Of a DNA stretch of 32,000 nt, positions 1-23,277 are shown piece by piece; the stretch's first letter is position 1; each line of letters starts with the position of its first letter. Both the position numbers and the translations under genes were made by a program. This stretch comes from Acaryochloris marina S15 (GTDB taxonomy: Bacteria; Cyanobacteriota; Cyanobacteriia; Thermosynechococcales; Thermosynechococcaceae). The notes under the pieces are model-generated. The model was not told the DNA's origin. It saw only the letters and a list, made by a program, of their open reading frames with translations, and did no database searches. Location of the stretch: the NCBI RefSeq assembly GCF_018336915.1, contig NZ_CP064923.1, forward strand, positions 1,830,001 to 1,862,000. Direction: 5' to 3'.

Positions 1-2
1 GG

Positions 3-1391
3 GGGAATATTGCTGCCTTTGTATCTGATCAGATTAATATTTCGGGCAATACTCCAAATGCAGGCCAACCTAGTGGCATCTTTTCCATAGTTGAGGTAGG
101 AGCATCTGGGGCAGGCGGTCAACTACTCTTAAGTACAGGCCAAGTAGTCATTGACAATGGTGGCCAAATTTCTACCTCTACTACTGGTTTTGGAGCTGCT
201 GGCAAGATTGATATTAGGGCATCACAAGGAGTTACCTTAATCGATCCTGGAAGCGGAGTGTTTGCTAACACTACTGATACTGGACAAGGAGGAACTATTT
301 CATTGTTTACCCCAAATTTTCTGATTGAGAAGGGGGCTGTTGTCAATGCCAGTACTTCTGGGAATGGTCGAGGGGGCAGCATTTTTATCCGGTCCAATCG
401 TTTTACAGCTCGTCAAGGAGGTCAACTTCTATCTACGGCATCGGGTCAGGGACCAGCAGGGGATATCACCTTACAAGTGCGCGACAACATCACCTTGATT
501 GGGGCCAATAGTGGATTGTTTGCTAGCACTACACCTGATTCTACTGGGGCTGCTGGCAATATCTTTATCGATCCGATACAAGTGTTGATCACCAATGGTG
601 CAGCGGTATCAGCGACTAGCTTAGGTATGGGTAAAGGGGGAGATATTCAATTGCGCGCCCGCAATTTAACCCTAGACCAGGGCCAAATTACGGCTGAAGC
701 AGCAGTGGCCCCAGCGGGGGATATTCAGTTAAATATTGCCAACTTCTTACTATTACGAAATGGCAGTTTGATTTCGACGACTGCGGGTGGGGATGCTACG
801 GGGGGCAATATTGATATCAATGCTCAACTCGTTACAGCATTTCCATCGGAGAATAGTGATATTACGGCTAATGCCCTCAATGGTCCAGGTGGCAATATTA
901 CCATTACGACTCAAGGGGTTTTTGGCCTAGAGGTCCGAGACACGCTTACGAATTCCAGTGATATTGCGGCGTTTTCTCAGACTAATCCCCAACTCAACGG
1001 CATTGTCGAAATCATCACTCCTGAGGTGGACCCTAGCGAAAACTTATCTGAACAACCCGATGCCGTTGAAAAGCCGACGGAGATCTCTAGGGGGTGTAAC
1101 GCCCAAACGGCTAGTAGTAGTTTTGTGAGTAAGGGGCGAGGGGGCTTGCCCCACAATCCAGCGACTGCTTTGAGTAGTGAAGCTATCTGGCAGGATCTAC
1201 GTGCGCAAGAAATACAGTCTCCTGTGCAATCCATTAGTCAAATGACACCCAAATCCACTCCACAGGCACCTGTTGCTGCTCCATTCAAATGGGTAGAAGC
1301 CAAAGCTTGGCAAAGGTTACCTAATGGGAAAGTGAAGCTTGTGGGCAATTCAATCAATCAAAACACTTTGCATCCCGCGCCCTCTTGCTAG
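3..1391 (+). CDS. FHA-like beta-helical exoprotein, C-terminal part (5' end lies outside the window)
   Basis: Reading frame 3 is open from base 3 (GNIAAFVSDQINISGN...) into the tracked ORF 258..1391, so the listed Met is internal. The sequence has degenerate Gly/Asn/Thr/Ile-rich repeats (GGxIxI type) typical of FHA/TPS passenger beta-helices. The last ~180 aa align with the C-terminus of the 4216..6984 product: DITANALNG.GG.ITITT.G..GLE, PEVDPSENLSEQP, GRGGLP, WQDLR, and Cys as the last residue. Confidence 0.85.
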   Translation, partial: GNIAAFVSDQINISGNTPNAGQPSGIFSIVEVGASGAGGQLLLSTGQVVIDNGGQISTSTTGFGAAGKIDIRASQGVTLIDPGSGVFANTTDTGQGGTISLFTPNFLIEKGAVVNASTSGNGRGGSIFIRSNRFTARQGGQLLSTASGQGPAGDITLQVRDNITLIGANSGLFASTTPDSTGAAGNIFIDPIQVLITNGAAVSATSLGMGKGGDIQLRARNLTLDQGQITAEAAVAPAGDIQLNIANFLLLRNGSLISTTAGGDATGGNIDINAQLVTAFPSENSDITANALNGPGGNITITTQGVFGLEVRDTLTNSSDIAAFSQTNPQLNGIVEIITPEVDPSENLSEQPDAVEKPTEISRGCNAQTASSSFVSKGRGGLPHNPATALSSEAIWQDLRAQEIQSPVQSISQMTPKSTPQAPVAAPFKWVEAKAWQRLPNGKVKLVGNSINQNTLHPAPSC

Positions 1392-1714
1392 TTCATGTTC
1401 TCTGTCAGTGAAAGGTTCTAGTGCTTTGAAAGGGAATAGCGTAAGCTGCTGTAATCTGAATTACAAACTTATGTAAATCTCTGCACAAATGCCAGCTATT
1501 TTTCTGATAAATGGGTAGTTCGCCATTCATCCTGTCATTTGGGTTGCTATTTAGCATCACTGATGATTCTTGACTTGTTAATCTTTTTTAGTGATCGCAA
1601 AATATAGGCTAGCTGTGATAGATAATAAGCACATCCCATATGATCTTTACTAATTCGATTTTTTCTTTTAAGTCAAGAAAGTATAAGTCAAATATGTAGG
1701 TTGAGTGATTTCAG

Positions 1715-2812
1715 ATGGAATCCCCTAAATACCAATCAAATGAAGGAATAAAGATTGAAGGGGAAATCACATTGCTGATGTATCAGACGACATCAGACAA
1801 GAAAAAAGTTCAGCTCAGCTTATTCAAGCTGACAACAGATGATGATGAAATATTTACTTTCTGCAATCACTATAAAGAGTCTTCCAGTTCAAAAAGCATA
1901 AATATATTAGTGAGTCTGGAAAGCCTGCAATTTTTTGATGAATATAGTCAGAATCATTTTAGTCTCTTGAATAGAGTTGTAATCTCAGTTCGAGAGCAAG
2001 TTTTGGTAAGCATAGAAGCTGTTGCAGAGAAAAAAATATCTCGAAGTCTAAAAACAATCAACCAGGCATCAAATTTTGCGATTAACGCAAGTATCCCTAT
2101 TGAAGTTTTTTGTAATAGCCAACTAGCATCCCGTCATCAAGAGGCTTTTGACGCAGCAGCAGAACGATGGTCACAAATAGTAGTCGGAGGATATCCAAAA
2201 ATTGGAATTAATGCTCCCAAATCAGAAGGTATGATTATTGAGGTATTTACTTCATTTATTGATGGTCCTGGTGGGATTCTGGGGGGGGCCAAACCAATAG
2301 ATATTAGGGCTGGTTGGAGATTACCTAACGCTGGTTGGATGATATTAGACTCTAGTGATATTGAGCGAATGGATGATCAGGATATTTTAGTTGATGTAAT
2401 TTTGCATGAGATTGGACATTTATTAGGTTTAGGGACCCTTTGGCAGGCATCAGGATTAACACAAGGTATTGGAGGCAGTAATCCAGTATTTGTGGGGCAA
2501 AAAACCATGAGCGAATATGCTCGGCTGACAGGTTATACGGCTCCTATTCCTGTTCCGCTAGAGAATAGAGGTGGCTTTGGTACTAGAGATTTTCATTGGC
2601 GAGAATCCATGTTTGGAAATGAGTTAATGACAGGATTGGTAGATGGAAAAATAAACCCAATTAGCCGATTAACTATAGCAGCTTTGGAAGATATTGGTTA
2701 TCAAGTTAACTATGATGCAGCCGATCTTTATTCCATTAAAAATTTTAGCAGACTGAAAAAGCTAAATGATAGTACTCAAGGCATTTCTGGCCTCTACTGC
2801 TCTGTAAAATAA
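1715..2812 (+). CDS. Leishmanolysin-like (peptidase M8-like) zinc metalloprotease with an unrecognised ~190-aa N-terminal region
   Basis: 365-aa ORF. The HExxH zinc site VILHEIGHLLGLGTLW has HEIGH at nt 2405..2419. Family-typical blocks are FDAAAERWSQIVVG, IDGPGGILGGA, PLENRGGFGTRDFHWRESMFGNELMTG and NPISRLTIAALEDIGYQVNYDAAD. No N-terminal signal peptide is visible (MESPKYQSNEGIKIEGE...). Confidence 0.8.
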   Translation: MESPKYQSNEGIKIEGEITLLMYQTTSDKKKVQLSLFKLTTDDDEIFTFCNHYKESSSSKSINILVSLESLQFFDEYSQNHFSLLNRVVISVREQVLVSIEAVAEKKISRSLKTINQASNFAINASIPIEVFCNSQLASRHQEAFDAAAERWSQIVVGGYPKIGINAPKSEGMIIEVFTSFIDGPGGILGGAKPIDIRAGWRLPNAGWMILDSSDIERMDDQDILVDVILHEIGHLLGLGTLWQASGLTQGIGGSNPVFVGQKTMSEYARLTGYTAPIPVPLENRGGFGTRDFHWRESMFGNELMTGLVDGKINPISRLTIAALEDIGYQVNYDAADLYSIKNFSRLKKLNDSTQGISGLYCSVK

Positions 2813-2968
2813 TATGACTAATCATGGGCGAAGGAGATACAAATACTAATTTAAGTCAGCACAGAAAACCTATATGAATATCACACTAATAATTCATGAT
2901 ATATTCACGAGTATATCTTTTTATAGTTAGATTTAATTCATTCTACATTGAACCAAGGAGCTGATACG

Positions 2969-3421
2969 ATGACATCTAATACAATTGACATAAATCCGGA
3001 ATTTGTAAGGATCCTACAATCTGCTGTGGGAACTGATTTAGACTGCGAACAACTTAAAGCACTTAATTCCTCTTCTGTAAATATAGTTTTTGGCTGTGTT
3101 CAAGCATTAAGCTATATCCCTGATCTTAATGATCAAAAATGTAACCCTCCAGAACTTCAGAAAGTTTTACTCAGGGATATTTTTGGTCAAACTAAATCGA
3201 TTAAAAAAACTCGCTCTAACAATGATGATTGTATTGCTGAAAATTTGAATGATTTTGAGAGAATCTTTAAAAATGCTGCTGACTTCGGCCATGAAATTTT
3301 TGCCATTTCAAATGGCAAAAATTTAACTTTAGCTACATTGGTTATCAATAAGTGCAACGCAAAAAATGCTGCCCAAGCTGCATTTATAACTAAAGATGGT
3401 GGCAATCCGAATCCTTTCTAG
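2969..3421 (+). CDS. Hypothetical protein (~150 aa, several Cys), no recognisable family
   Basis: The tracked ORF 2948..3421 begins at a TTG. An AAGGAG Shine-Dalgarno at 2954..2959 sits 9 nt before the ATG at 2969 (MTSNTIDINPEF...), which is the more likely start. AT-rich codon usage matches the surrounding island. Confidence 0.5.
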   Translation: MTSNTIDINPEFVRILQSAVGTDLDCEQLKALNSSSVNIVFGCVQALSYIPDLNDQKCNPPELQKVLLRDIFGQTKSIKKTRSNNDDCIAENLNDFERIFKNAADFGHEIFAISNGKNLTLATLVINKCNAKNAAQAAFITKDGGNPNPF

Positions 3422-3727
3422 TCTTAAGCGCACAGTAAAGCAATAAAACGGCCAAAGTAAAGGCGTTGCTATATGCCAGGATGACTCCAATATTATCTAT
3501 ATCCAGAGATATTTTGTATTGCAAAGCTTTCAAGGTATATCGTTTTTTAAAGTCTTCTTCAAATTTTGCAACGCCCAATAAGGATCAACTGTTGTTTCTA
3601 TCATTAAACGTAGTTTGAGAATTGTTAATACTCCAAAAATAAAAATCGCCGAGACTTCATTATCACCAATTTTACTCAGGTATCTCTTCCCTAAGTCTAT
3701 GCACATATCAAAAGCTAGAAACCCCAC
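3390..3727 (-). pseudogene. Possible frameshifted small membrane protein (two overlapping ORFs, 3530..3727 and 3390..3578)
   Basis: Two short minus-strand ORFs overlap by 49 nt. Each carries one hydrophobic helix-like stretch (VSAIFIFGVLTILKL; IGVILAYSNAFTLAVLLLYCAL). Joined by one frameshift they would give a ~115-aa two-TM protein. There is no homology evidence, and the upstream ORF starts at GTG. Confidence 0.2.
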
Positions 3728-4088
3728 CTACCTACAGTCAGTTATTTAAATTCATTGAGATAAAGGCATATAGTTTTGTGAGAATACTTTGTGACGATAG
3801 CTTCTATCTTATAAATCTTATATAAATGCACTTTTAAGGATTCTCAAATCAAAGAAGCTAGCTAAGAATCTATTTTAGAAGTCTTTGGAAACCCTCGTCA
3901 AATCTAATTTTCAGCGGTTTAACTATTTCGGCCATAACCAAATACTGGATAAGACTTCTGGAAAAATTCCAAACAGATTCTAACATTTTTATTTTTAAAA
4001 AAATGATCCCATCAACCCCAATACTAAAATTTTTAAAGTATGTAGCTTTCACAGTAGTAGAGATTTTTTTTAAAATCCCTAAACTGGA

Positions 4089-4118
4089 ATTCCTATGACC
4101 TAATATTCCTATGACCTA
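4089..4118 (+). repeat. Two perfect 14-bp direct repeats (ATTCCTATGACCTA) spaced 16 bp apart, ~100 bp upstream of the FHA-like gene; candidate operator/activator site
   Basis: The copies lie at 4089..4102 and 4105..4118. A TATAAAT -10-like element follows at 4122..4128. A partial third TCCTAT occurs at ~4148. Confidence 0.6.
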
Positions 4119-4215
4119 CTATATAAATATTCTAAATTATCAAACAATCCTATAGTATAGATTTTCTTACAAAAGAAATCTGACTATTGCACTTAAGTTA
4201 CTTGATAGTTAACTT

Positions 4216-6984
4216 ATGAAGAATTTTATCCCAGCATTAGCAATCGCTCTAAATTTGACACTATTTTTAGCAGAAGCTTCATTTTTTTCTGTTCGGTGTC
4301 AATCAATTCAAGCTGATGGAACAACGCCTACAAAGATAGATCTGCCAGCATTTGGAAAATGCCAAGGTACTTGCACTATTTCAGGAGGAAAGCGTCAAGG
4401 GAATAACTTATTTCATAGCTTTGAAGAATTTAATGTGGACTTAGACTCAACAGTCTTATTTGTAAATCCAAATGCACAAAACATCATTAGCCGTGTGACT
4501 GGTAACAATCCTTCCAATATCTTAGGTACATTAGGAGTACAAAGTGGCGAGGCTAACTTATTTCTTGTAAACCCTAATGGAATTTTGTTTGGAGAAAAAG
4601 CTAGCTTAGGTCTTAACGGATCTTTTATAGCGACAACTGCGAATGCCATTCAATTTGGTAATCAAGGCATTTTGAGCGTTTCTAAATCTGACATTCCAAG
4701 GATTTCTATTAACCCTTCAGCATTGTTTTTTCAAGAAGCTAGTGGCGCAATTGTAAATAGTTCTCGTGAGGGACTTTCTGTACCTACCAGCCATAGCCTC
4801 CACCTTATTGGTGGTGATGTAATCCTAGACAATGGAAGAATCAATAGTTTTGGTGGTCGAGTTGAGTTGGGGGGGCTAGCTACATCTGGAATTGTGACTA
4901 TATTACCGGATAAAGAAGGTTTTTCCCTGAAATTCCCTGATAGCAATTTGAAGTCTAACGTACTACTTACTAACGCAAGAATTGATGTTACAGGTGAGGG
5001 TGGAGGTAATCTATCAATTAATGCAGGTGAGATAGAAATTGAAAGAAGCAGATTACTGGCAGGTATAGGGATTGACCTGGGCTCCAGTTTTACCCAAGCT
5101 GGAAATATTACACTTAAAGCAGATGAATCAATAACGATTCACAGTGAAAGTAATATTAACAATAGACCACTTTTTAATGCAAAAGGTTTAGGTGGTGATG
5201 TTGTTATTAATTCTAAAAGCTTATATGTGACTACAAATTCACAAGTAGGATCAAATACTTTTGGAATTGCATCTGCAGGTAATGTAATTCTAAAAGTTCA
5301 AGAAGAAATATTGTTAGATTCAGGGTCTATTTTTAATAGCGTAGCAACTTTTCAAGATTTTAGGGCAACAGGTAATGGTGGAAAAATAATTGTAGAAACT
5401 GATAAGCTTTATTTGAAAAATGAAGCCGAATTTGCAGCGAACGTTAACGGAACAGGTGATTCTGGTGGAATCACCATCAATGCTAGTGATATTATTCTAA
5501 GCAATTTTAGTGGAATACTTAGTAGTGTCGAAACAGGTGGAATTGGACAAGGTGGGGAAATAAGAATATTCACTGATACCCTTACTTTGCAAAGTGGATC
5601 GCAAATTGCCTCATCTGTCCTCAGGGCAGTAGGTGGTACACCTGGTGGAATTGGGGAAGGTGGAGATATACATATTGAGGCATCTGAAAGTATTAACATA
5701 TCTGGTTTCGATGAGACGAACGGATTCCCCAGCGGCATTTTAGCCGCTACTGAAGAGGGCGCTATTGGTCCTGCAGGAAATATAATTATAAAAACTGATA
5801 CCTTTAGTATTGTTGATGGAGCATTGTTAAACACAGATACTTTTAATAAGAGTGATGGTGGAAGCATTACAATTTTTTCAAATAACCTTGAAGTAATTAA
5901 TGGAGGTCGAATTAGCACCGCAACTTTTAATCAAGGTAATGCAGGTTTTATTAAGCTTAATGTGACAGGAGAGATAAAATTAGCTGGTAGTGATGCAAAT
6001 TTTGATCGCCGCCTTAAATTGATTGAAACTTTTTTAGTTGAAGCTGGTAGTGATAAAAATTTAGTTATAGACCGGATCAATAGCCTAAGAGACATTGGTC
6101 CTAACAGTGGTCTTTATGCTAGTGCGACTTCAGGTGCTTCTGGTAAAGCTGGAAATATTTCTATTGACCCCAGATTAGTTTTGATTCAAGATGGTGCCAA
6201 TATTACTGTTAATAACGCTGGCTCTGGACCAGGCGGTGATATTTTTCTCCAATCGATTGATTTGACTCTTGATAACGGAACAATCTCTGCAACATCTAAT
6301 AGTAATTCTGGTGGTAATATCTCTCTCTTAATAGATAATATTTTATTACTGCGCAATAACAGCCAGATATCAACTACTGCCGCTGGCGATGGCACAGGTG
6401 GAAATATTGATATCAAAGCCAGCCTTATAGTTGCCTATCCATTTGAAAATAATGATATAACTGCCAATGCGTTGAATGGGAAAGGTGGAAAAATTACTAT
6501 TACTACTAAGGGGATTTATGGGCTAGAGGAAAGAAATCAACTTACTGACTTAAGCGACATTACCGCTTTCTCACAAAATACTCAATTGAATGGGGTTGTG
6601 GAAATCACTAATCCAGAAGTCGACCCAAGTGAAAATCTATCTGAGCAACCTGAAGTCGTAGAACCCCCGAAAGAAATTGCCAAAGGCTGCCGACCTGGCC
6701 AATCCCTCGGTGGCAGCACATTCACCCACGTGGGTCGCGGTGGACTCCCTATAAGCCCCCACCACACCCAAACCCCCACCACTGTCTGGCAAGATCTTCG
6801 CTCTCACAACCTCCAACCCACCTCCATCAGCACCACCGATACATCACCCTCTTCCCTTATCCCCTCCCCGCCCCCCAACATCACCGAAGCCAAAGGCTGG
6901 ACCAAAGACACCCAAGGCCGTATTTACCTAACTGCCGACGTTCCCCAACCAGCCCAGAGCCTCCAACCCATTGCAACTTGCTAG
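4216..6984 (+). CDS. Filamentous-hemagglutinin-family exoprotein with N-terminal TPS (haemagglutination-activity) secretion domain
   Basis: 922 aa with a signal-peptide-like N-terminus (MKNFIPALAIALNLTLFLAEASFF). TPS-domain hallmarks are NLFHSFEEFNV, NIISRVTG and NLFLVNPNGILFG. A long degenerate beta-helix repeat region follows, then a conserved C-terminal module (6454..6984) shared with the 3..1391 product, and a Pro/Thr-rich tail ending in Cys. Confidence 0.9.
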   Translation: MKNFIPALAIALNLTLFLAEASFFSVRCQSIQADGTTPTKIDLPAFGKCQGTCTISGGKRQGNNLFHSFEEFNVDLDSTVLFVNPNAQNIISRVTGNNPSNILGTLGVQSGEANLFLVNPNGILFGEKASLGLNGSFIATTANAIQFGNQGILSVSKSDIPRISINPSALFFQEASGAIVNSSREGLSVPTSHSLHLIGGDVILDNGRINSFGGRVELGGLATSGIVTILPDKEGFSLKFPDSNLKSNVLLTNARIDVTGEGGGNLSINAGEIEIERSRLLAGIGIDLGSSFTQAGNITLKADESITIHSESNINNRPLFNAKGLGGDVVINSKSLYVTTNSQVGSNTFGIASAGNVILKVQEEILLDSGSIFNSVATFQDFRATGNGGKIIVETDKLYLKNEAEFAANVNGTGDSGGITINASDIILSNFSGILSSVETGGIGQGGEIRIFTDTLTLQSGSQIASSVLRAVGGTPGGIGEGGDIHIEASESINISGFDETNGFPSGILAATEEGAIGPAGNIIIKTDTFSIVDGALLNTDTFNKSDGGSITIFSNNLEVINGGRISTATFNQGNAGFIKLNVTGEIKLAGSDANFDRRLKLIETFLVEAGSDKNLVIDRINSLRDIGPNSGLYASATSGASGKAGNISIDPRLVLIQDGANITVNNAGSGPGGDIFLQSIDLTLDNGTISATSNSNSGGNISLLIDNILLLRNNSQISTTAAGDGTGGNIDIKASLIVAYPFENNDITANALNGKGGKITITTKGIYGLEERNQLTDLSDITAFSQNTQLNGVVEITNPEVDPSENLSEQPEVVEPPKEIAKGCRPGQSLGGSTFTHVGRGGLPISPHHTQTPTTVWQDLRSHNLQPTSISTTDTSPSSLIPSPPPNITEAKGWTKDTQGRIYLTADVPQPAQSLQPIATC

Positions 6985-7112
6985 ACACCCCAGATTGACC
7001 GAAAATAAATGACTAAATCGGGAAACTGGGCATTTGTCATTCGTTTGTGAACATGGGCAAAAGAATCTGGAAAAGCATCACACCATCAACAACCGTGAGG
7101 AAGGGAACATTA

Positions 7113-9740
7113 ATGCTTCAAAGAAAGGCTCGAAGACTACTGCCTATTACTCGTAGAAAATTACGCTGGTTGGGAGTGGCCCTTTGCAGTACCTGCCTAG
7201 TCCTTGGCCTAAGCCTTGAGCAACGTCCTGCCCACTCCACCTCGGCCCTCCCTACCGCGAACCAACTGACCATCAACGCTCCTACAACTCCTCGCCCACG
7301 CCTAGCTAGCAACCCGACCCAACTGGTGGAACAAGGGAAAGCCTTTTACCAAGGGGGACAGTATGCCGCAGCCGCAGAAGCCTGGTCTCAAGCTGCCCAA
7401 AGCTATAAAGGTCAACCCCTTAATCAAGCCATCGTCCTCAATCAGCTGAGTCTTGCTCAGCAAGAACTGGGTCAATGGCTAAAAGCCCAAGATAGTATTC
7501 GCCAAAGCCTAGAGATAGTTGGTGAACCACCAGCCCCTCAGAATTTGTCCATCTATGCTCAAGCACTAAATGCCCAAGGCAGTTTAAATTTGTCCCAAGG
7601 CGACCCCAAAAGCGCCTTGGACACCTGGGGTAAAACAGCAGAAATTTATGCTCAACTTGGAGATGAAATTGGTCGCATTGGTAGCCTGATTAATCAGGCC
7701 CAAGCCCAGCAAGTCATGGGACTCTACCTTCAGTCTCGAAAGAATCTGGAAAAAGTCACCGCTGAATTGGACCAACAGGCTAATCCTGCAATTCGGGCCA
7801 CTGGTTACCGCAGTTTAGGTAATGTATTACGCTTAGTCGGTGATCTAGAAGAAGCAGAGAGATCTCTACTCCTGAGTTTACAGAACGCCGAAGCAACCGA
7901 CGCTCCCCAAGAAGTGAGCATGACCCAACTCAGTTTGGGAAATACTGCTCGTGCCCGCAAATCCTTTGACCTTGCTATTGACTATTACCAAAAAGCAGCC
8001 CAGTCTCCTATTCCATCGACCCAGCAACAGGCTCGGCTAAATCTACTCAGCGTCTTAATTGAGAAACAGGACTGGTCCCAAGCCCAACAGCTCTGGCCTC
8101 AAATTGAAACGGAATTAAGTGGGCAACCCCCCAGTCGCCGCAATATCTACAGCAAGGTTAACCTCGTCAAAAGCCTGGTAAAGCTTAATCAAGAGTCATC
8201 TAGCAAGACTCCCTCTATTCCTGACATTGCCAACATTACGGCAAAGGCAGTTCAGCAATCCTATGATATTGATGATCCGCGTGCCCAAGCTTATGCTTTA
8301 GGAAATTTAGGAAATTTATATGAACTAGGTGAACAGTGGTCAGAAGCTCGCAAATTGACGGAGCAAGCTCTTTTTATTGCCCAGGCGAATAATGCCAGTG
8401 AGATCAGTTACCAGTGGCAATGGCAATTGGGGCGCATTATGGATGCCCAAAAGCAAACCGATCAGGCCACCTCTGCTTATCAAGGAGCCTTTCAGACCTT
8501 AGAATATCTCCGCAAAGATCTGGTTGCTACTAATCCGGAAGCCCAATTCTCCTTCCGTGAAAGTGTGGAGCCTGTGTATCGAGAACTCGTAGATTTATTG
8601 CTGCGGGGGGACAATCCGAGTCAGGAGAATCTGAAACAGGCTCGTGCAGTGATGGAATCTCTGCAGTTAACGGAATTAGATAATTTCTTTCGGTCTGCTT
8701 GCCTGGATGGTCAAATTATCAGTATTGAAGATATTGACCAACAGTCAGCAGCAGTGGTGTACCCCATTCTGCTCAAGGATCGCATTGAACTGATCACCAG
8801 CTTGCCTCAGCAGGAAGGCTTAAAGCATCAAACGATTCCTATTCCCCAGTCTGAAGTAGAAGAGACCATCAAGCTTTTTCGTGAGGAAATCGAAAAACCC
8901 TACACCTTTATTGAAAGTAAGGAGTTAGGCCAAGTTGTCTACAACTGGCTGATTCAACCCCTCCAAGCTGAATTAGAGGAAAGCCAGGCCGATACATTAG
9001 TATTTGTGCTGGATGGGGCACTCCGTAACCTTCCTCTGGCTGCCTTATATGATGGCGAGAAATACCTGATCGAAGAATATGCTCTGGCTTTGGCTCCAGG
9101 CATGCAGCTGATCAATACTGAGCCTCTGCAAGGGCGAGAACTCCAAGTGATTGCCGCGGGGATTAGCGAAGCACGAGGTTTTTATCCACCCCTGGAAAAT
9201 GTCAAAAAAGAATTAGATAAGATTAGCCGATTGGTTACTAGTACAGTGCTGCTGAATCGTGATTTTACTAGTACTTCACTACGAGAACAGATCCAGTCCT
9301 TGCCCTATCCCATTGTGCATCTTGCCACCCACGGTAAATTTAGCTCAGAAGCAGAGAAAACCATACTGCTGGCTTGGGACAAAGAAATCAACGTCAATCA
9401 GCTTAATGAGCTATTGCGTAGCAGTGAACAAGTCCGGCCAGAACCCATTGAGCTTCTAGTGCTAAGCGCCTGCGAAACGGCTGCTGGAGATGACCGGGCT
9501 GCCTTAGGGTTAGCGGGTGTCTCAGTTCAAGCAGGAGCACGTAGCACCCTGGCTTCCCTATGGAGTTTGGACGATGAGTCAACTGCCTCCCTTATAGGAG
9601 AGTTCTATGACGAACTCGTTCAATCTAAAGTCTCCAAGGCCAAAGCCCTACAAAAAGCCCAGGTCGCTATGATCAGCGATCCAGACTTCCGTCACCCAGC
9701 CCACTGGTCAGCATTTGTGCTGGTAGGGAACTGGCTGTAG
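7113..9740 (+). CDS. Exported TPR-repeat / CHAT-domain (caspase-fold) protease-like protein
   Basis: The ORF is open from 7047 (GTG). The ATG at 7113 is preceded by GAGGAAGGGA and gives MLQRKARRLLPITRRKLRWLGVALCSTCLVLGLSL, a basic stretch plus hydrophobic signal/anchor. The central part has TPR-like helical repeats (e.g. GKAFYQGGQYAAAAEAWSQAAQSY, ALGNLGNLYELGEQWSEARKLTEQAL). The C-terminal CHAT domain has a His-Cys dyad in the contexts IVHLATHGKF (His codon 9330..9332) and LLVLSACETAAGD (Cys codon 9471..9473). Confidence 0.88.
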   Translation: MLQRKARRLLPITRRKLRWLGVALCSTCLVLGLSLEQRPAHSTSALPTANQLTINAPTTPRPRLASNPTQLVEQGKAFYQGGQYAAAAEAWSQAAQSYKGQPLNQAIVLNQLSLAQQELGQWLKAQDSIRQSLEIVGEPPAPQNLSIYAQALNAQGSLNLSQGDPKSALDTWGKTAEIYAQLGDEIGRIGSLINQAQAQQVMGLYLQSRKNLEKVTAELDQQANPAIRATGYRSLGNVLRLVGDLEEAERSLLLSLQNAEATDAPQEVSMTQLSLGNTARARKSFDLAIDYYQKAAQSPIPSTQQQARLNLLSVLIEKQDWSQAQQLWPQIETELSGQPPSRRNIYSKVNLVKSLVKLNQESSSKTPSIPDIANITAKAVQQSYDIDDPRAQAYALGNLGNLYELGEQWSEARKLTEQALFIAQANNASEISYQWQWQLGRIMDAQKQTDQATSAYQGAFQTLEYLRKDLVATNPEAQFSFRESVEPVYRELVDLLLRGDNPSQENLKQARAVMESLQLTELDNFFRSACLDGQIISIEDIDQQSAAVVYPILLKDRIELITSLPQQEGLKHQTIPIPQSEVEETIKLFREEIEKPYTFIESKELGQVVYNWLIQPLQAELEESQADTLVFVLDGALRNLPLAALYDGEKYLIEEYALALAPGMQLINTEPLQGRELQVIAAGISEARGFYPPLENVKKELDKISRLVTSTVLLNRDFTSTSLREQIQSLPYPIVHLATHGKFSSEAEKTILLAWDKEINVNQLNELLRSSEQVRPEPIELLVLSACETAAGDDRAALGLAGVSVQAGARSTLASLWSLDDESTASLIGEFYDELVQSKVSKAKALQKAQVAMISDPDFRHPAHWSAFVLVGNWL

Positions 9741-10046: not shown

Positions 10047-11336
10047 CTATTGGGAAGATGATTGCAGGCTGCCGTTATTATTGGCCAGAATTTTCTCGTT
10101 CAGTACAGAGAGGGCTTTGGCATATTGAGGATCGGCGAGGGTGCCAATCTTTTCTCGGTCTAGAGAAAGGGCTTCCCGCTGATCATCTGTGAGTTTGACC
10201 TCGATATCTGGTTCAATCCCTTTTTTGTTGATATCTCGACCGCTAGGGGTAAAGTATTTGGCAACGGTCACTGCCAGACCTGAACCATCCTCTAAAGGAT
10301 GCACGGATTGAACCAGCCCTTTACCAAAGGTTTTAGTGCCAATGAGAACGGCCCGTTTGTTGTCCTGCAAGGCCCCAGCTAGAATTTCGCTGGCACTAGC
10401 TGATCCTCCATCTACAAGGATTACAAGGGGTTTATCTGTGAGGGTGTTTTTACCAGAGGTGAGCTTGTCTTCACCGCCTTTACGATCCACTGTGGAAACA
10501 ATGGTGCCTTTACCCATCCACATGCGAGCGATCTCTGCACTGGAGTAGAGTAAACCCCCTGGATTAGAACGCAGGTCAAGGATAAAGCCTTCAACCTTTT
10601 GTTTGTTCAAGGCTTGAATCGCTTCGCGCATTTCCGAGGAGGCATTGTTGCTGAACTGATTGAGGCGAATATAGCCTACATTACCGGCTGGGTTTTTTTG
10701 GTTGGAAAAGCGAACAGGATGTATCTCGATTCGGGCTCGCTTGATCTTGAAATTTAGTTGCTCTTTATCTCGTAGAACAGTGAGGGTAACGTCGGTGTTG
10801 ACGGGACCCCGAATTAAGCTGACGACACCATTAATATCCATCCCTTTGGTGCTTTTGTTGTCAACTTTGATGATGACATCCTTAGATAAAAGTCCAGCGT
10901 CTGCGGCTGGACTTCCTTCGATGGGGGAAATAACGGTGATGTTTTTGGTCTCTTCGTCCTGGGTAATTTGAATCCCAACCCCAGTCAGCTCACCGGAGGT
11001 ATCAATTTGCATGCTCTTGAATTGCTCTGGATCCATGAAGCGAGTGTAAGGATCTTCAAGCTTGTCCAGCATTTCTCGGACTGCTTTATAGGCTTCATCC
11101 CGAGAGGTATAGTTGCGATTTAAATATTTGTTGCGAATATCACGCCAATCATTGCCGTTAAATGTGGCGTCAACATAGTCATGATTGATGACTTGCCAAA
11201 CCTCGTCCACCACTTCTTTCGGACTTTCTTTGAACACGGCCCAACTGGACTGCCAAAGGTTTGCACCAATGACGACAACACCCGCTCCAACAAGGGCTGT
11301 TGTTCCTAATACTAGTCCGTCTTTTGAATTCGCCAT
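10047..11336 (-). CDS. Carboxyl-terminal processing protease (peptidase S41, PDZ domain), Ctp family
   Basis: The sequence shows an N-terminal hydrophobic anchor (LVLGTTALVGAGVVVIGA), a PDZ region (GVGIQI...ISPIEGSPAADAGL...DVIIKVDN) and an S41 catalytic region (LRSNPGGLL, VDGGSASASEILAGALQD, GTKTFGKG). The tracked ORF extends to a GTG at 11366; the ATG at 11336 (MANSKDG...) is the more likely start. Confidence 0.92.
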   Translation of the reverse strand: MANSKDGLVLGTTALVGAGVVVIGANLWQSSWAVFKESPKEVVDEVWQVINHDYVDATFNGNDWRDIRNKYLNRNYTSRDEAYKAVREMLDKLEDPYTRFMDPEQFKSMQIDTSGELTGVGIQITQDEETKNITVISPIEGSPAADAGLLSKDVIIKVDNKSTKGMDINGVVSLIRGPVNTDVTLTVLRDKEQLNFKIKRARIEIHPVRFSNQKNPAGNVGYIRLNQFSNNASSEMREAIQALNKQKVEGFILDLRSNPGGLLYSSAEIARMWMGKGTIVSTVDRKGGEDKLTSGKNTLTDKPLVILVDGGSASASEILAGALQDNKRAVLIGTKTFGKGLVQSVHPLEDGSGLAVTVAKYFTPSGRDINKKGIEPDIEVKLTDDQREALSLDREKIGTLADPQYAKALSVLNEKILANNNGSLQSSSQ

Positions 11337-11468
11337 AAGCCTAACCCAATTGGTTTCGTGAGGCACTATCCCCTTCTGTGTACAACAGAGGGACAGTGAG
11401 GTACGCCCACTCTAGCACAAGCTTCTAGAAGGCTACATGAGTTGGAAATGAGTTTTGAATGATGGGAT

Positions 11469-14672: not shown

Positions 14673-15050
14673 ATGCAATGCCCACTATGCGGTCATTCCA
14701 AAGCACACAAGCATGGCAAGATGCCCAACATGCTTCAACGATACCGTTGTCCTGAGTGCCAGCAGACCTTTACTGAACGCTTTGATACCCTTTACTATCG
14801 TCGTCAGGTGAGTCCAGAGCAGGTCCGACAAGTTCTCCAAGCCCATGCAGAAGGGAGTAGTCTTCGAGGTATCACTCGGACCAGTGGCCTGGCTTACAAC
14901 ACTGTAGTCTCTCTAGTAAGAGCTGCTAGCCAACGATCTCAGCAACTCCATAATGGCCAAGTGCAAGCCGTTGAAACGGAGGATGTCAGTGCAGATGAAA
15001 TGTGGTCCTTTGTGAAAAAAAGCAAAAACACTGTCTTCCCCATGAGCTAG
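14673..15050 (+). CDS. insA: IS1-family InsA-like protein (zinc finger + HTH); upstream frame of the InsAB' transposase
   Basis: There is an N-terminal CxxC...CxxC motif (MQCPLCGHSKAHKHGKMPNMLQRYRCPECQQTF). The ORF ends just after the motif ADEMWSFVKK, which spans the frameshift site. Confidence 0.85.
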   Translation: MQCPLCGHSKAHKHGKMPNMLQRYRCPECQQTFTERFDTLYYRRQVSPEQVRQVLQAHAEGSSLRGITRTSGLAYNTVVSLVRAASQRSQQLHNGQVQAVETEDVSADEMWSFVKKSKNTVFPMS

Positions 15051-15502
15051 AGATGGGTGATTGTTGGATGGCGATTACCTTGGCAAACACAAGCGGCGTG
15101 ATCCTCTCGTGTCGTGTGGGCAAGCACACCGATTCATTATTGAATGAACTGGTGACTAGCACTGAAGGTAAGACCGATTGCAAGGACTGGAATAGCGACG
15201 ATTGGGGGGGGTACGAAAGAGTGTTGCCTTGGGAGATTGACCATTACATTGGCAAGGACAGAACTCAACGACTCGAACGCACCAATGGCATTATTCGACA
15301 GCACAGTGGTCGATGGCATCGACGCCAGAACAAATTTGGCAAAGTGTGGGCGCAAACCAAAGTCACTGCTCGATTAGTGGTCAGCTATTTCAATTGGATT
15401 TGGACACACAGTCGGCTTAAAACAACGGCGGCACAACGTGCTGATCTAGCCTCGCGAGCTTGGCATTGGGATGACATACTCACCTACCCCACAATTGTTT
15501 GA
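15002..15502 (+). CDS. insB: IS1-family InsB' catalytic (DDE) part, expressed as InsAB' fusion by -1 frameshift
   Basis: This frame is -1 relative to insA. Slipping on A AAA AAA G (15015..15022) yields ...DEMWSFVKKKQKHCLPHELEMGDCWMAI..., i.e. a continuous ~277-aa transposase. The stop codon lies inside the right IR. Confidence 0.85.
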   Translation: MVLCEKKQKHCLPHELEMGDCWMAITLANTSGVILSCRVGKHTDSLLNELVTSTEGKTDCKDWNSDDWGGYERVLPWEIDHYIGKDRTQRLERTNGIIRQHSGRWHRRQNKFGKVWAQTKVTARLVVSYFNWIWTHSRLKTTAAQRADLASRAWHWDDILTYPTIV

Positions 15503-15556: not shown

Positions 15557-17278
15557 TTAGATCTGCACAGTATTGCCATTTAGGCCTTGAAACTCAAAGA
15601 AACCTAGTTCCTCGCGATAGGTCTGTTTGATGTCCCTTAGCATACTGATTGCTAGTTGTTCACCCAATAGGTTTCCACCTGTTGGTATGCCTAAACCGTC
15701 ACGATCTGGTGGGGTATTAACACCAGAGGCAGTACCATCTGTGCGCCAATGCATCCCTGCTGCATCCCGAAACAGGGTAATGTTTGCAATTAATTTGTTT
15801 AACTCTCCATGAATTGTCAAATCTTCTCCGTTGTATGGCATTAAGTCTTGACCCTGAGCGATGGGAATCACTGGGTTTGGAAATGGACCATCTTGGAATA
15901 AAGCTTTGGCAGTAGTGGCTGCGGCTGCGATAAAGACTGAGTGACCACCTGGATACGCGGGATGGGTTGGAGAGCCTTCAGGGAAAGCAATAGGAAGTAA
16001 CCAAGTACCCTCTTGATCAGAACGGCAGTTATTTCTATTTTGTGTCTGGTTATGCGCCAAGATGCGATCCAGCACTTGAGACTGTCTCCATACCTCTGCG
16101 CCTTCTCCAAATAGTTGGTTGAATAAATCGTTGTTGAGTGGGTCGGCTGCAGACGGTGCCAATAAACCTCTGCGGAATAGTTCGAGACGCTGGGCATAAA
16201 CTTCAGGCCTAAGGCGGCGATGGACACACCACTTTTGGAACCAAGCATGTTTTAAGGCATATACAGATGCTAAAGCTGGCTGAATCGTTACGTCTGGGCC
16301 ACCTAAACTCCCAAATGGCTCAGCGGTGGTTATTCCCCCATTTACATAGGGACTTGCGTTGGAGATACCAGTTCCTAAGCCAAGCAAAATAATAGTAGAC
16401 CACAAAGCTGATTGGTAAGGAAAATCGATGTGAACCCATTGCCCTGCATCTCTGAGAGTTATGATACGGCGTTCGCCCACTAAAAGGTCGCTTCCAGTAG
16501 GATCAACATTGCCATTATTGACTTGAAACCAACTATCAAAGTCAGTGAGGTAATCCAGTTTCTTTTGGGGATAGCGCTGTAGTTGTCGAATTGGTTGATT
16601 GCCAAAATCGAAGTCTTGCAGGAGAAACTGAGAAACATGAGGACCGATAGCGCATCCGGTATATGGGCCTCGGAAGACAGTTTGCGGAGTGCATGAAAAC
16701 CCAAATTGTTGTTCAAAGCCTAGGGCATTCAAATCTTGGCAAGCGTCAGCAATTACGGAATTACTGGCATATTGATCAAAAGGGACATCCCGGCATAACG
16801 CCATCCAATAGCGTTCGACTAAGTCAACTGCAGAATTTCGACTGGAGAAAGTTGGCGCTGCAGCCATTCTTGCTCCATTTGAATCATTTCCAATTAATTG
16901 GAATGAATAAGCATTGAGAGGGTTCGCAAGCTTGCGAATACCTCCCCCCAATTGCACGCTTTCGAAGGCATCTTGCGTGCCTGTTTGAATGGCTGAAAGT
17001 AGCGAATTAAAAGATAGTTCTTGGACTAAACCATTGTCATTATGACTTAAAGCTTTCGAAAAAGATGCAAAGCCGGGACGACCAAGAGCCTCATATTTAG
17101 CTTCATCTCCATTTGCGGGTGGTTGCCCTGTTGCGAACTCTGATAGGGCATTGTCACGAGCAAGATCACGGATCTTTCCGACTTTGTGTCGTCTTGTATC
17201 GAAGTCTCGCTCAGATATTACATTAGAGCTTTGATCAGGCTGTGTATCAGAGTCCTGCCCAGGTTGGTAGTTTGTCAT
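15557..17278 (-). CDS. Vanadium-dependent haloperoxidase-like protein (PAP2/acid-phosphatase superfamily; bromoperoxidase-like)
   Basis: The three superfamily motifs are present with correct spacing: KWCVHRRLRPE (K...RP), THPAYPGGHS (PSGH-type) and RDAAGMHWRTD (R-x5-H-x3-D). The protein is large and soluble (~570 aa) with no TM helices, as in algal/cyanobacterial vanadium bromoperoxidases. The tracked ORF extends to 17338; the ATG at 17278 (MTNYQPG...) has a GAGGG motif upstream and is preferred. Confidence 0.8.
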   Translation of the reverse strand: MTNYQPGQDSDTQPDQSSNVISERDFDTRRHKVGKIRDLARDNALSEFATGQPPANGDEAKYEALGRPGFASFSKALSHNDNGLVQELSFNSLLSAIQTGTQDAFESVQLGGGIRKLANPLNAYSFQLIGNDSNGARMAAAPTFSSRNSAVDLVERYWMALCRDVPFDQYASNSVIADACQDLNALGFEQQFGFSCTPQTVFRGPYTGCAIGPHVSQFLLQDFDFGNQPIRQLQRYPQKKLDYLTDFDSWFQVNNGNVDPTGSDLLVGERRIITLRDAGQWVHIDFPYQSALWSTIILLGLGTGISNASPYVNGGITTAEPFGSLGGPDVTIQPALASVYALKHAWFQKWCVHRRLRPEVYAQRLELFRRGLLAPSAADPLNNDLFNQLFGEGAEVWRQSQVLDRILAHNQTQNRNNCRSDQEGTWLLPIAFPEGSPTHPAYPGGHSVFIAAAATTAKALFQDGPFPNPVIPIAQGQDLMPYNGEDLTIHGELNKLIANITLFRDAAGMHWRTDGTASGVNTPPDRDGLGIPTGGNLLGEQLAISMLRDIKQTYREELGFFEFQGLNGNTVQI

Positions 17279-17810
17279 AATTACCCTCAAAGTATGTTCA
17301 AGAAATAGATGTATTTTGCGAAGAATAGATTTCTCCATGAAGAAATTTCTGATGTTTTTATGTGTTAGCCTAGCCTTGGCTTTTATCCCTTTTGTATATG
17401 GAGATTGAGTAGGGTATAGCTAGGTCGAAGTGGTGAAAATCGACCGCTGTCGGGTAAAGAATATTTCTCTTCTTTCCTAGCTAAAAGCATTCTTTATTTA
17501 GTTGAAGCCAGGTATAAGACAGTACACAAAAACTTGAATATTTCTCTTTTTTTAGTGAGAAAAGAGTGATTGATTATTTGTTGACGTAGTTAAGACTTCT
17601 ATGGAATTATCGGTGGTAAATAGTCATTTTACGCAAGAAATAATTTTGTCTGTTGCTGACTGAATTAAGTCGTATTCTCTAGCCATTCATATTGTTTTGC
17701 TGTGATATCCATCGCATGAATTCGTGAGCCACTAGACAGCAAAGCTGTGATCGTTAGCACTGGTATAGCCTGTCTGGGGAATACTAACTGCAGCATTTAT
17801 TCAGACACCT

Positions 17811-20281: not shown

Positions 20282-21277
20282 GTGGTGCAGCTCAGTGATA
20301 CCCGGATTTTAATGATTGAGGATGATGAGCAGGATGTAGAAATCATCAGAGAATTACTAGAGGGCCGTCATAGTTTCCCTACAGCTCTTGAGCATCGGAG
20401 TTCACTCGCAGAAGGGATAGCTCGACTTCATCATGAACCTGCCGTTGACCTTGTGCTTCTTGATTTATCTTTAACGGATGCCAGTAATCTAGAAGCTTTT
20501 CAACAAATTCAACTGAATTTTCCAGAAATGCCTCTGATCATTCTCAGTGGTAATTTAGATCCATCTAGAGCATTATATCTATTGCAACAAGGTGCACAAG
20601 ATTGTCTATTTAAAGGGCATTTTGATGCTACCATCCTACGTTGCTCAATTCAATTTGCTCTAGAAAGACAGAATCTTTGGTTGGAATTAAGAGAGAAGAA
20701 TAAGGTCTTAGAAAAAATTTCAAAAGAGCTCAAAGTAGCTAACCATAAACTCGAAAAAATATCAGCGATAGATAGTTTAACTCACATCAATAATCGACGT
20801 CGATTTGATTCGATATTTCTGGCAGAATGGATTCGAATGATGCGAGAACAGCAACCTCTATCCCTGATTCTCTGTGATGTCGATCACTTTAAGGCGTATA
20901 ACGACACCTATGGACACCCTGCGGGTGATAAATGTCTACAGCAGGTTGCCCGAGCCCTTTCTGCTGTAGCTAAGCGTTCTGCAGACTGTGTAGCTCGTTA
21001 TGGTGGAGAAGAATTTGTGGTGGTGCTACCTAACACCGATCAAGCTGGAGCGCTTCATGTCGCTGAAACCATTAGATCGGAAATCGAAGCTCTCAGTATT
21101 CCCCATAGCTCTTCCTCTGTCAGTCATTATGTTAGCCTCAGCTTAGGAGTAGCTTGTATCATTCCAAGCAAAGCGATAGCCCCATCTCAGTTGATTGAGC
21201 TGGCAGATCAAGCTCTATATGTGGCAAAAAAACAAGGCCGTAATCGAACTCATACTCTTGAATTGATCCAAACATAA
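20282..21277 (+). CDS. Response regulator receiver + GGDEF diguanylate cyclase
   Basis: The REC domain shows ILMIEDDEQDVEII, the acceptor Asp in VLLDLSLTD, ILSGN and CLFKG. A coiled-coil linker follows, then a GGDEF domain with GGEEF (nt 21002..21016) and an RxxD I-site (RSAD) 5 aa upstream. The start is GTG with an AAGGGGGAAGG ribosome-binding site. Confidence 0.9.
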   Translation: MVQLSDTRILMIEDDEQDVEIIRELLEGRHSFPTALEHRSSLAEGIARLHHEPAVDLVLLDLSLTDASNLEAFQQIQLNFPEMPLIILSGNLDPSRALYLLQQGAQDCLFKGHFDATILRCSIQFALERQNLWLELREKNKVLEKISKELKVANHKLEKISAIDSLTHINNRRRFDSIFLAEWIRMMREQQPLSLILCDVDHFKAYNDTYGHPAGDKCLQQVARALSAVAKRSADCVARYGGEEFVVVLPNTDQAGALHVAETIRSEIEALSIPHSSSSVSHYVSLSLGVACIIPSKAIAPSQLIELADQALYVAKKQGRNRTHTLELIQT

Positions 21278-21359
21278 TTTTTGACTTTTCTTCGGAATTG
21301 AAAGGGGATAACTGGCTGCCTTCTAAATATCTCTTAGGGTGAAAGACATTCTAAGTAAA

Positions 21360-23150: not shown

Positions 23151-23277
23151 TTGCTCCCCCTTAAATGCAACTCTGCATTTAATTAAAAAATTAAAAAGAC
23201 TTGGATTTTATTTTCTTTTTTGTTCAATTTTTTGATGTATTTTTAAGTAAGATACTAATCCTTCCTCACTGGAACGA

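Follow-up and report, generated by a model that had tools for sequence, protein, structure and literature searches.

A TPR-CHAT caspase-fold protein as a candidate third partner of cyanobacterial two-partner secretion, seen from a locus of Acaryochloris marina S15

Analysis of a 32,000-nucleotide stretch of the Acaryochloris marina S15 genome (contig NZ_CP064923.1, positions 1,830,001 to 1,862,000; hereafter the window, in whose numbering coordinates are given unless another locus is named) revealed two genes for large exoproteins of the TpsA family, followed on the same strand by a gene for a putative exported caspase-fold protease that combines tetratricopeptide repeats (TPR) with a CHAT domain (TPR-CHAT). 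Two-partner secretion (TPS), or type Vb secretion, is treated as a minimal two-gene pathway; the conserved pairing of TpsA with TPR-CHAT suggests a form of this pathway with a third, proteolytic partner. This variant of type Vb secretion with three components is real and widespread and seems so far unstudied. We tentatively read the locus, as nearly an even possibility, as the chromosomal copy, devoid of TpsB, of a type Vb system of cyanobacteria that consists of TpsA, TpsB and TPR-CHAT. The features concerned are the following.

1..1391, plus strand: TpsA-1, 3′ part (frame 3..1391; 463 codons, the last 462 aa), a beta-helix exoprotein with a TPS domain, 964 aa when whole
1002..1388, plus strand: C-terminal tail of TpsA-1, 41% identical to the TpsA-2 tail
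1500..6600: low-GC, strain-specific island (M8-like metallopeptidase, open reading frame 2948..3421 and the passenger part of TpsA-2)
4216..6984, plus strand: TpsA-2, complete TPS exoprotein, 922 aa (Pfam TPS, TIGR01901, AlphaFold2, Foldseek)
4306..5016, plus strand: TPS secretion domain of TpsA-2, residues 31-267 (PF05860 profile positions 3-251 of 252)
6604..6981, plus strand: TpsA-2 tail, residues 797-922, predicted to be disordered (motif conservation, low model confidence)
7113..9740, plus strand: TPR-CHAT, putative exported caspase-fold protease, 875 aa (Pfam CHAT and TPR families)
7167..7217, plus strand: N-terminal hydrophobic segment of TPR-CHAT behind a basic stretch, acting as signal peptide or as membrane anchor (orthologue alignment)
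7305..8699, plus strand: TPR superhelix, ~465 aa, roughly 11-12 helix pairs (AlphaFold2, Foldseek)
8922..9731, plus strand: CHAT domain (PF12770), with the His codon at 9330-9332 (HLATHG) and the Cys codon at 9471-9473 (LSACET)
26842..28248, minus strand: second CHAT protein, TPR-less, 468 aa (Pfam CHAT)

Both exoproteins belong to the TpsA family, of which they display all the testable defining features save an adjacent TpsB. Among the window open reading frames (ORFs) of at least 400 aa, which were all scanned with Pfam, TpsA-2 matches the TPS family PF05860 (E 4e-44, residues 31-267) as well as the NCBIfam model TIGR01901 (E 4e-22), and it carries a signal-like N-terminus and the TPS motifs NLFHSFEEFNV and NPNGILFG. 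Its sequence is 100% identical to a protein recorded at NCBI for Acaryochloris marina. The AlphaFold2 (AF2) model of TpsA-2, built from a 24-sequence alignment, has a mean predicted local distance difference test score (pLDDT) of 81 and consists of a beta-helix over residues 30-800, where pLDDT is ~90; its top Foldseek matches are EtpA (the best), HxuA, HMW1, FHA and HpmA. The window edge cuts TpsA-1, the start of which lies ~1.5 kb upstream, and the whole gene is found on a public contig reaching 8.3 kb upstream of the window (L001 6783-9677; Pfam TPS E 4.5e-48). Up to four tandem TpsA paralogues precede a single TPR-CHAT gene in related loci, a pattern into which the two genes of the window fit.

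The gene that follows, contained in ORF 7047..9740, encodes a member of the CHAT family and putative peptidase: it matches Pfam CHAT PF12770 over profile positions 2-289 of 289 (E 2.9e-59), together with several TPR families. Because the orthologues are 866-873 aa long and align accordingly, we place its start at ATG 7113 rather than at 7047. The gap to TpsA-2 is 128 nt with no terminator-like site between 6984 and 7113, an operon-like arrangement. A preliminary description of this DNA had located two genes resembling filamentous haemagglutinin (FHA) and a ~875-aa TPR-CHAT protein at these positions, which the Pfam TPS, CHAT and TPR matches bear out, and had noted an intact His/Cys dyad at codons 9330 and 9471; His741 (HLATHG) and Cys788 (LSACET) are indeed invariant across 27 orthologues of 50-94% identity. 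The family is large: homologues at E<=1e-20 number more than 2100, of which the 120 best, as listed, share 50-94% identity with the window protein. In the aligned orthologues, a short basic stretch at the N-terminus gives way to ~17-20 hydrophobic residues, often followed by AxA-like small residues (SRA|E, VIA|S), and a variable Pro/Ser/Thr-rich linker separates this segment from the first TPR helix. An N-terminal hydrophobic segment (15-residue window with mean hydropathy >=1.8) is present in 107/120 homologues, with a median start near residue 14, whereas a second strongly hydrophobic window of 19 residues after residue 100 occurs in none of the 120. The N-terminal export signal, noted at the outset as a signal or anchor, is thus a property of the whole family. 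Whether a cleaved signal or an N-terminal anchor, the segment should place the body of the protein on the periplasmic side; only ~19 residues precede it, and there is no cytoplasmic domain.

Analysis of related loci shows that the pairing is not due to chance. Species-representative genomes were scanned with the orthologue alignment, yielding 80 cyanobacterial loci in which ORFs were called and searched with the domains of the window; the genera include Nostoc, Calothrix, Rivularia, Coleofasciculus, Microseira, Pseudanabaena, Gloeocapsa, Chroococcidiopsis and Pantanalinema. A same-strand TpsA gene lies directly upstream (gap <600 bp) of 44 of the 73 TPR-CHAT genes with sufficient upstream sequence, and ~10 further TPR-CHAT genes have a TPS gene at a distance of 0.8-5 kb; among the 50 loci of at least 15 kb, 43 contain a TPS gene. 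The same order, TpsA followed by TPR-CHAT, is present in the annotated neighbourhoods of Anabaena cylindrica and Calothrix brevissima, and it persists from one cyanobacterial order to another and at protein identities as low as 30%, in plasmid copies and in Gloeothece as well. The adjacency of the FHA-like and CHAT genes, on the conservation of which the preliminary description had staked its proposal, thus withstands the comparison (44/73 loci across cyanobacterial orders). A search of the literature, with subscription journals outside its coverage, found no work pairing ‘CHAT domain’ with two-partner secretion, TpsB, FhaC, ShlB, hemagglutinin, DUF928 or CHASE2, in line with the earlier statement that experimental work on such a pairing was not known.

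With a TpsB profile, filters switched off and ORFs of at least 70 aa, no TpsB was found in the window plus the 8.3 kb upstream (best E 0.16), and none was detected by the Pfam scan of window ORFs of at least 400 aa; the absence of TpsB from these 32 kb, observed at the outset, hence holds and extends to the upstream flank. The preliminary description spoke of TPR-CHAT instead of a visible TpsB; read literally, TPR-CHAT would replace TpsB, and the exoproteins would leave the cell without an Omp85-type transporter. This idea is largely refuted and scarcely credible. It accords with the lack of TpsB in the window and within 10 kb in most related loci. However, when the neighbour clusters of 82 genome loci were annotated via their representatives, a ShlB plus POTRA_2 protein was found in 8/82, in each case directly upstream of TPR-CHAT and downstream of TpsA, and 8 metagenome loci anchored on the TpsA tail (see below) also encode TpsB, adjoining TPR-CHAT in some. 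Moreover, the canonical TPS domain is conserved, and the AF2 model of TPR-CHAT has no beta-barrel features. Plasmids supply the clearest cases. A tblastn search with TpsB against plasmids returned 45 records, mostly cyanobacterial, many of which are annotated beside a ‘CHAT domain-containing protein’. On plasmid pREB6 of Acaryochloris marina MBIC11017 (L169), TpsA, TpsB and TPR-CHAT form, in this order, a tight operon in which the genes are 6 and 20 nt apart; plasmid pMB08 of Acaryochloris ‘Moss Beach’ (L166) carries such an operon with overlapping genes, and two further Moss Beach plasmids encode TpsB. Where TpsB adjoins TPR-CHAT, the genes often overlap. In Anabaena cylindrica, TpsB is likewise on a plasmid, whereas two chromosomal TpsA/TPR-CHAT pairs are without it. 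TpsB is accordingly a component of the system whose link to TpsA is looser than that of the protease; it is usually unlinked, not replaced. In our reading, export of the window TpsA proteins would depend on a TpsB. TpsB-like proteins of Anabaena are reportedly the subject of a study by Ngo et al. 2021 (J Bacteriol 203).

Beyond the 3′ end of the operon, pREB6 and pMB08 both carry on the opposite strand genes for a serine/threonine kinase and an NB-ARC protein (STAND NTPase), and on pMB08 a TIR-domain gene is also close by. Conflict or defence islands typically have such surroundings.

Beyond the beta-helix, TpsA-2 ends in a tail of ~125 aa, over which pLDDT drops to ~30 from residue 802 to the end. 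Judged by its sequence, it is a newly delineated, unannotated C-terminal module of cyanobacterial TpsA; the TpsA-1 fragment, including its tail, matched no Pfam or NCBIfam model. The tail of TpsA-2 comprises VDPS..L..QP, C825, F836..GRGGLP (840-845), W.DL, a P/S/T-rich linker, EAKGW..G.I.L and C922, and it has in common with that of TpsA-1 the elements VDPSENLSEQP, GC, F..GRGGLP, WQDLR, EAK.W and a terminal Cys. Across the family, the short motifs are (E)INTP(D/E)VDPS..L..LP, then A(Q).C, then S.F..(T)G(R)GGLP..P, followed by W.DL, a variable Pro/Ser/Thr-rich linker, IVEAQGW.....G.V.L.A and, only a few residues from the end, a Cys beyond which the residues vary in length and sequence. Even the plasmid and Gloeothece versions, at ~30% identity, keep the skeleton C...F...G.GG(L/I/V)(P/A)...GW..G...C, though not the Arg of GRGGLP. 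The tail is carried by 118/120 TpsA homologues, retrieved through full-length similarity; in 117/120 the last 135 aa contain exactly two Cys, and 96/120 have no other Cys in the mature protein, so that the two are most simply read as forming one conserved disulfide. Whereas a word-indexed search with the tail alone gave 4 matches, an exhaustive search with a HMMER profile of both window tails, on which the family size is based, recovered 3952 representative proteins at E<=1e-3, of which 732 at E<=1e-10, with the match at or near the C-terminus in all of the 150 listed; the named members that were checked are all cyanobacterial TPS proteins. A predicted disordered segment with conserved linear motifs suggests the type of ligand that TPR domains bind.

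Tail and protease are constant where the passenger is not. In the window, GC content is 0.27-0.41 from ~1500 to 6600 and 0.45-0.57 on the flanks, and the right boundary falls at about residue 796 of TpsA-2. In a blastn comparison with the Moss Beach chromosome, identity is 90.7% from window position 6603 on, that is, over the tail, TPR-CHAT and the downstream genes, and there is no homology across the preceding 9 kb, from L001 5899 to window 6603; homology returns only upstream of both TpsA genes. Because homology starts at the junction of helix and tail, the passenger appears replaceable, the tail and protease constant. The same junction emerged from a mirror-tree analysis of pairwise distances in 36 adjacent TpsA/TPR-CHAT pairs, in which TPR-CHAT distances correlate with those of the tail (r=0.92) far better than with those of the TPS domain (0.64) or the helix cap, the last helix turns (0.48); the partial correlation of CHAT and tail given the N-terminus is 0.86, as against 0.08 for the reverse, and the correlation, followed with a sliding window, rises abruptly from 0.2-0.45 to 0.63-0.86, precisely at the NPEVDPS junction. 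Consequently, the tail, TpsB where present and TPR-CHAT evolve as one unit, and the fibre body is an exchangeable cassette.

Two further genes lie within the island, namely ORF 1715..2812, the product of which resembles metallopeptidases of the leishmanolysin (M8) type (PF01457, E 6e-10), and ORF 2948..3421, which encodes a 157-aa protein of no assigned family. Both may be cargo that arrived along with the replaced TpsA passenger.

What the protease might do with the tail can be approached through known systems. TpsA proteins are threaded N-terminus first, folded or disulfide-bonded segments being poorly compatible with the TpsB channel, and TPR arrays typically bind extended peptides. One comparison is Bordetella FhaB, the prodomain of which includes a proline-rich stretch and a conserved extreme C-terminus and is processed by SphB1, CtpA and DegP. 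With FhaB/FhaC, the window proteins share the Sec signal, the TPS domain, the long beta-helix passenger and, as predicted, export by an Omp85-type TpsB. The C-terminal prodomain of FhaB is kept inside the cell and removed during secretion (PMC4542190). It lies outside the mature fibre, probably in the periplasm, and its removal by proteases controls release; processing of the window proteins would follow the same pattern. Caspase-like domains, for their part, have been proposed as releasing peptidases in secreted toxins (PMC3482391). Taken together, type Vb threading and the precedents of FhaB, of TPR-peptide binding and of releasing caspases lead us to favour capture and cleavage of the tail. 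There are nevertheless differences from FhaB: the tail is ~125 aa rather than ~1200 aa long, two conserved Cys bracket it, no similarity between its sequence and that of the FhaB prodomain can be detected, and the candidate protease is an operon-encoded caspase-fold TPR-CHAT protein, whereas those of FhaB are a subtilisin autotransporter and an S41 peptidase encoded elsewhere.

We therefore propose, as a possible account that we rate close to evenly balanced yet still tentative, that TPR-CHAT is a periplasmic protease which binds and cleaves the TpsA tail and thereby controls retention or release of the fibre. The preliminary description had suggested regulated proteolytic maturation or release of the exoprotein, or else a surface-signalling module; the conserved, predicted disordered tail gives the first suggestion a candidate target, and the second stays a serious rival. 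TpsA proteins would pass the inner membrane by Sec, and a TpsB encoded elsewhere (in Acaryochloris, on plasmids) would recognise the TPS domain and thread them across the outer membrane, outside which ~770 residues would fold into a beta-helical fibre. The last ~125 residues, the disordered two-Cys tail, would emerge last and probably stay in the periplasm, presumably closed by a disulfide. TPR-CHAT, exported to the periplasm or anchored there through its N-terminal signal, might then bind the extended tail with its TPR superhelix, and its His/Cys caspase-fold domain might cleave it, so that the fibre would be kept cell-bound or else released or matured. Since all of them share the tail, one protease could serve several tandem or dispersed TpsA paralogues.

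Several observations weigh against this proposal. The link between TpsA and TPR-CHAT is not obligatory: in a reverse test, metagenome contigs were anchored on the C-terminal module of TpsA with a 13-sequence tail alignment, and of ~50 evaluable TpsA arrays roughly half ended in a TPR-CHAT gene whereas about half had no TPR-CHAT within 10 kb, just as 29 of the 73 TPR-CHAT genes have no directly adjacent TpsA. In the AF2 model of TPR-CHAT, pLDDT is mostly >85 over the TPR part (residues 66-530) but <50 over the CHAT core (residues 663-820), and because this core is unreliable, the intactness of the active site is deduced from the sequence. In nine TpsA-TpsB-TPR-CHAT triplets, TpsB distances correlate with CHAT at r=0.95, with the tail at 0.72 and with the TPS domain at 0.49; as TpsB tracks the TPS domain, its own recognition target, worst, linkage and passenger recombination explain much of the coupling, and after this control we downgraded the mirror-tree signal as a sign of functional co-evolution. 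Divergent plasmid subfamilies have another residue in place of the Arg of GRGGLP (GEGGLP, GSGGVA, GPGGIP); cleavage after this residue was therefore dropped as a firm claim, and no specific cleavage site can be named. Finally, in the orthologous Moss Beach locus (L002 8063-9872), TpsA is broken into ORFs of 304, 113 and 169 aa, with the tail frameshifted just past GRGGLPP, whereas TPR-CHAT is intact and the dN/dS ratio between it and the window copy is 0.068. Because purifying selection persists beside a TpsA pseudogene, the protease does not depend on its neighbour, although a protease that acts in trans on further TpsA paralogues would fit the case too.

Some of these observations would also be expected if the two proteins were co-located but functionally independent, TPR-CHAT being a general periplasmic protease or one with other substrates, and the linkage reflecting shared regulation or a mobile, variable region. 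Many orphan TpsA genes, some orphan TPR-CHAT genes, the protease conserved beside the pseudogene and the size of an expanded family that includes the second CHAT gene of the window all agree with such independence. We regard it as very unlikely, however, in view of the gene order kept across orders and down to 30% identity, on plasmids and in Gloeothece, of the insertion of TpsB precisely between both genes with overlapping reading frames, and of the constant tail and TPR-CHAT forming one conserved block.

The same synteny and tail data are compatible with a non-degradative role of TPR-CHAT, either as a periplasmic chaperone or docking factor or as a sortase-like transpeptidase that joins the TpsA C-terminus to an envelope component. 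Clan CD includes transpeptidases (legumain, GPI8, PorU), and TPR proteins are often chaperones or scaffolds, which speaks for this option, as does the location of the tail at the extreme C-terminus in all 150 profile matches listed, reminiscent of sorting signals. Nevertheless, the invariant His/Cys dyad disfavours a purely structural role, the variable residues past the last Cys are unlike known C-terminal sorting signals, and no nearby acceptor or partner gene is conserved, so that this option appears very doubtful.

A more serious alternative arises from the wider neighbourhood. The small, signal-peptide-bearing protein DUF928 is encoded in 46/82 loci, nearly always beside a CHASE2 protein, which in at least 25 loci is a CHAT-CHASE2 fusion; next in line are often DUF1822 (21 loci) and a sigma70_r4-like gene, and in many loci the order on one strand is TpsA, TPR-CHAT, DUF928 and CHAT-CHASE2. 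The four-gene DUF928/CHAT-CHASE2/DUF1822/sigma module matches the EACC2-caspase-CHASE2 plus extracytoplasmic function (ECF) sigma plus DUF1822 system, which Kaur et al. 2021 read as a stimulus-activated protease/sigma system (PMC8195603); TPS, hemagglutinin and FhaB do not occur in the text of that paper. This module, which stands beside TpsA/TPR-CHAT in many related loci and also uses a CHAT/caspase domain, is absent from the window, where TPR-CHAT has no CHASE2. A second precedent is DdvA of Myxococcus xanthus (PDB 8rot/8rw5), a transmembrane anti-sigma factor with a periplasmic TPR-CHAT region, DdvA-like proteins being reported almost only in Myxococcota (PMC11506125). The statement in the preliminary description that Csx29 is the only well-studied TPR-CHAT protein is accordingly out of date. 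DdvA and the window protein have in common a single N-terminal membrane segment, a flexible linker, an extracytoplasmic TPR superhelix and a His/Cys CHAT domain, and DdvA is a weak Foldseek match of the full-length TPR-CHAT model (ranks 35 and 39).

These neighbours and the DdvA precedent point equally well to signalling and also count against the tail-cleavage proposal. The TpsA fibre might be a surface sensor of contact, phage or damage, and its periplasmic tail a ligand or regulator of TPR-CHAT rather than the end substrate; once activated, TPR-CHAT would cleave another target, such as DUF928 or the CHASE2 receptor-caspase, and the DUF1822/sigma-like module would change transcription, much as in the autoproteolytic step that has been proposed for DdvA and for EACC2-caspase systems. 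In addition to the recurrent neighbourhood, to the interpretation of Kaur et al. 2021 (PMC8195603) and to the action of the periplasmic TPR-CHAT of DdvA in sigma signalling (PMC11506125), this account can draw on the purifying selection on TPR-CHAT where the adjacent TpsA has decayed, and on phage-resistant mutants of Nostoc 7120, which hit a TpsA (alr1906) and a TPR-CHAT protein with one transmembrane segment (all2170; PMC10811720). However, the all2170 mutant had a second mutation, and any link of all2170 to a TpsA is conjectural. DUF928, CHASE2 and DUF1822 were not found in the window, nor do the tight plasmid TpsA-TpsB-TPR-CHAT operons of Acaryochloris have such neighbours. As the window has none of the recurrent neighbours, the core pair works without them, and we define the core as TpsA plus TPR-CHAT (plus TpsB). 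DdvA, moreover, has a cytoplasmic zinc-binding anti-sigma domain, an ECF sigma partner and a partner other than TpsA; the window TPR-CHAT does not belong to the DdvA type of anti-sigma factor, as it has neither a cytoplasmic domain nor a sigma partner and is encoded between TpsA and an S41 peptidase gene. On balance, we consider the signalling account a serious but unlikely one.

A bolder reading, which we deem distinctly unlikely, would make the TpsA fibre, TpsB, the tail and TPR-CHAT a trans-envelope sensing device, with the fibre as replaceable bait or receptor, for instance for phage or neighbour cells. A pull on the fibre or its loss would alter engagement of the tail and switch the protease on, and with it, where present, DUF928/CHAT-CHASE2/DUF1822/sigma. 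If so, the device would be a bacterial extracellular ‘caspase cascade’ starting from a type V substrate, with defence or a cell-fate response as the outcome.

Beside DUF928, the neighbourhoods contain genes of type I secretion. RTX proteins are encoded near TpsA/TPR-CHAT in 23 loci, and in Nostoc, genes for a C39-peptidase ABC transporter and a HlyD-type adaptor often lie directly upstream of TpsA (L041, L059-L061, L066, L074; L170), the ABC transporter on plasmid pCC7120alpha of Nostoc PCC 7120 (L170) being annotated as peptidase-domain-containing. These neighbours suggest that loci for type I and for type Vb secretion are linked. The DUF928 proteins themselves have, after the signal peptide, a conserved G-G-x-S/T-R-G-x-C (L057 12891-13676, L009 17729-18511), which loosely echoes C...G-R-G-G-L-P of the tail and might represent a shared protease recognition element.

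The remaining relatives differ more clearly. Csx29 of the type III-E CRISPR ‘Craspase’ and separase have the same TPR-CHAT architecture and the logic of a ligand-gated caspase-fold protease, but they are cytoplasmic and bound to Cas7-11 or securin. Foldseek matches of the TPR-CHAT model are to TPR proteins, driven by the TPR part, with weak full-length-type matches to DdvA and to Csx29 (8eey_B), and phmmer against PDB chains returned TPR proteins only, with no sequence-level match to Csx29 or separase. As the Pfam scan found no cas genes among the window ORFs of at least 400 aa and the protein has an export signal, it is not Csx29. HMW1ABC, EtpBAC and CdiBAI resemble the present system in having a conserved third gene that acts on or with the exoprotein, and EtpA is also the best structural match of TpsA-2; HMW1C and EtpC are, however, cytoplasmic glycosyltransferases and CdiI is an immunity protein, none of them an exported protease. 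In contact-dependent inhibition, furthermore, the N-terminus of CdiA is constant and the C-terminal toxin varies, whereas here the tail is constant and the passenger varies. Because the constant and variable parts are reversed and the downstream gene encodes an 875-aa TPR-CHAT rather than a small immunity protein, the window TpsA is not CdiA-like.

Other genes of the window lie outside the pair. The second CHAT gene, announced as exported in the preliminary description, is authentic (CHAT E 6e-64; signal-like N-terminus ...LIGLISLCSIWAYSLPSSAQ); it stands apart from the TpsA/TPR-CHAT pair and marks an expansion of the CHAT family in this genome. It forms a consecutive minus-strand row with a sigma-70 family gene (28494..29333) and an M28 peptidase gene (25915..26769), and the row 25915..29333 may be a separate sigma-linked caspase module. 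Convergent with TPR-CHAT lies a gene for an S41 CtpA-like tail-specific peptidase with a PDZ domain (10047..11366, minus strand). Bordetella CtpA degrades the FhaB prodomain, and the gene was considered as a partner of that type; this was rejected, since it is no recurrent neighbour of TPR-CHAT in 82 related loci and its placement is thus probably coincidental. Two overlapping ORFs at 14673..15502 (plus strand), similar to an InsA zinc-ribbon protein and an IS1 DDE transposase, represent an IS1-like element or remnant; at the Moss Beach counterpart of this site no gene is called between the Hsp33 gene and a haloperoxidase-like gene. A 593-aa protein without a Pfam match is encoded at 15557..17338 (minus strand); its Moss Beach orthologue is weakly annotated as VCPO_2nd (vanadium chloroperoxidase-like). 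Three response-regulator genes of GGDEF or GGDEF-EAL type (cyclic di-GMP turnover), one on the plus and two on the minus strand, cluster at 20282..25080. PADLOC gave weak domain-level matches only (BovA, TPR), with no evidence for a known defence system.

The known maturation proteases of TpsA proteins, those of FhaB, are unrelated enzymes encoded elsewhere. If our reading is correct, an exported, TPR-bearing caspase-fold protease kept in an operon with its exoprotein across cyanobacteria would define a three-partner variant of two-partner secretion, and CHAT proteases would gain their first candidate class of substrates in an extracellular pathway. The tail, with its 3952 representative clusters, would predict the place of cleavage or binding and would explain how one protease can serve many rapidly swapping fibres. 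In filamentous cyanobacteria, few large surface proteins are as abundant as TpsA fibres, and one such fibre has been hit in phage-resistance screens (PMC10811720). The system may thus matter for adhesion, for the formation of biofilms and for the interaction of phages with their hosts.

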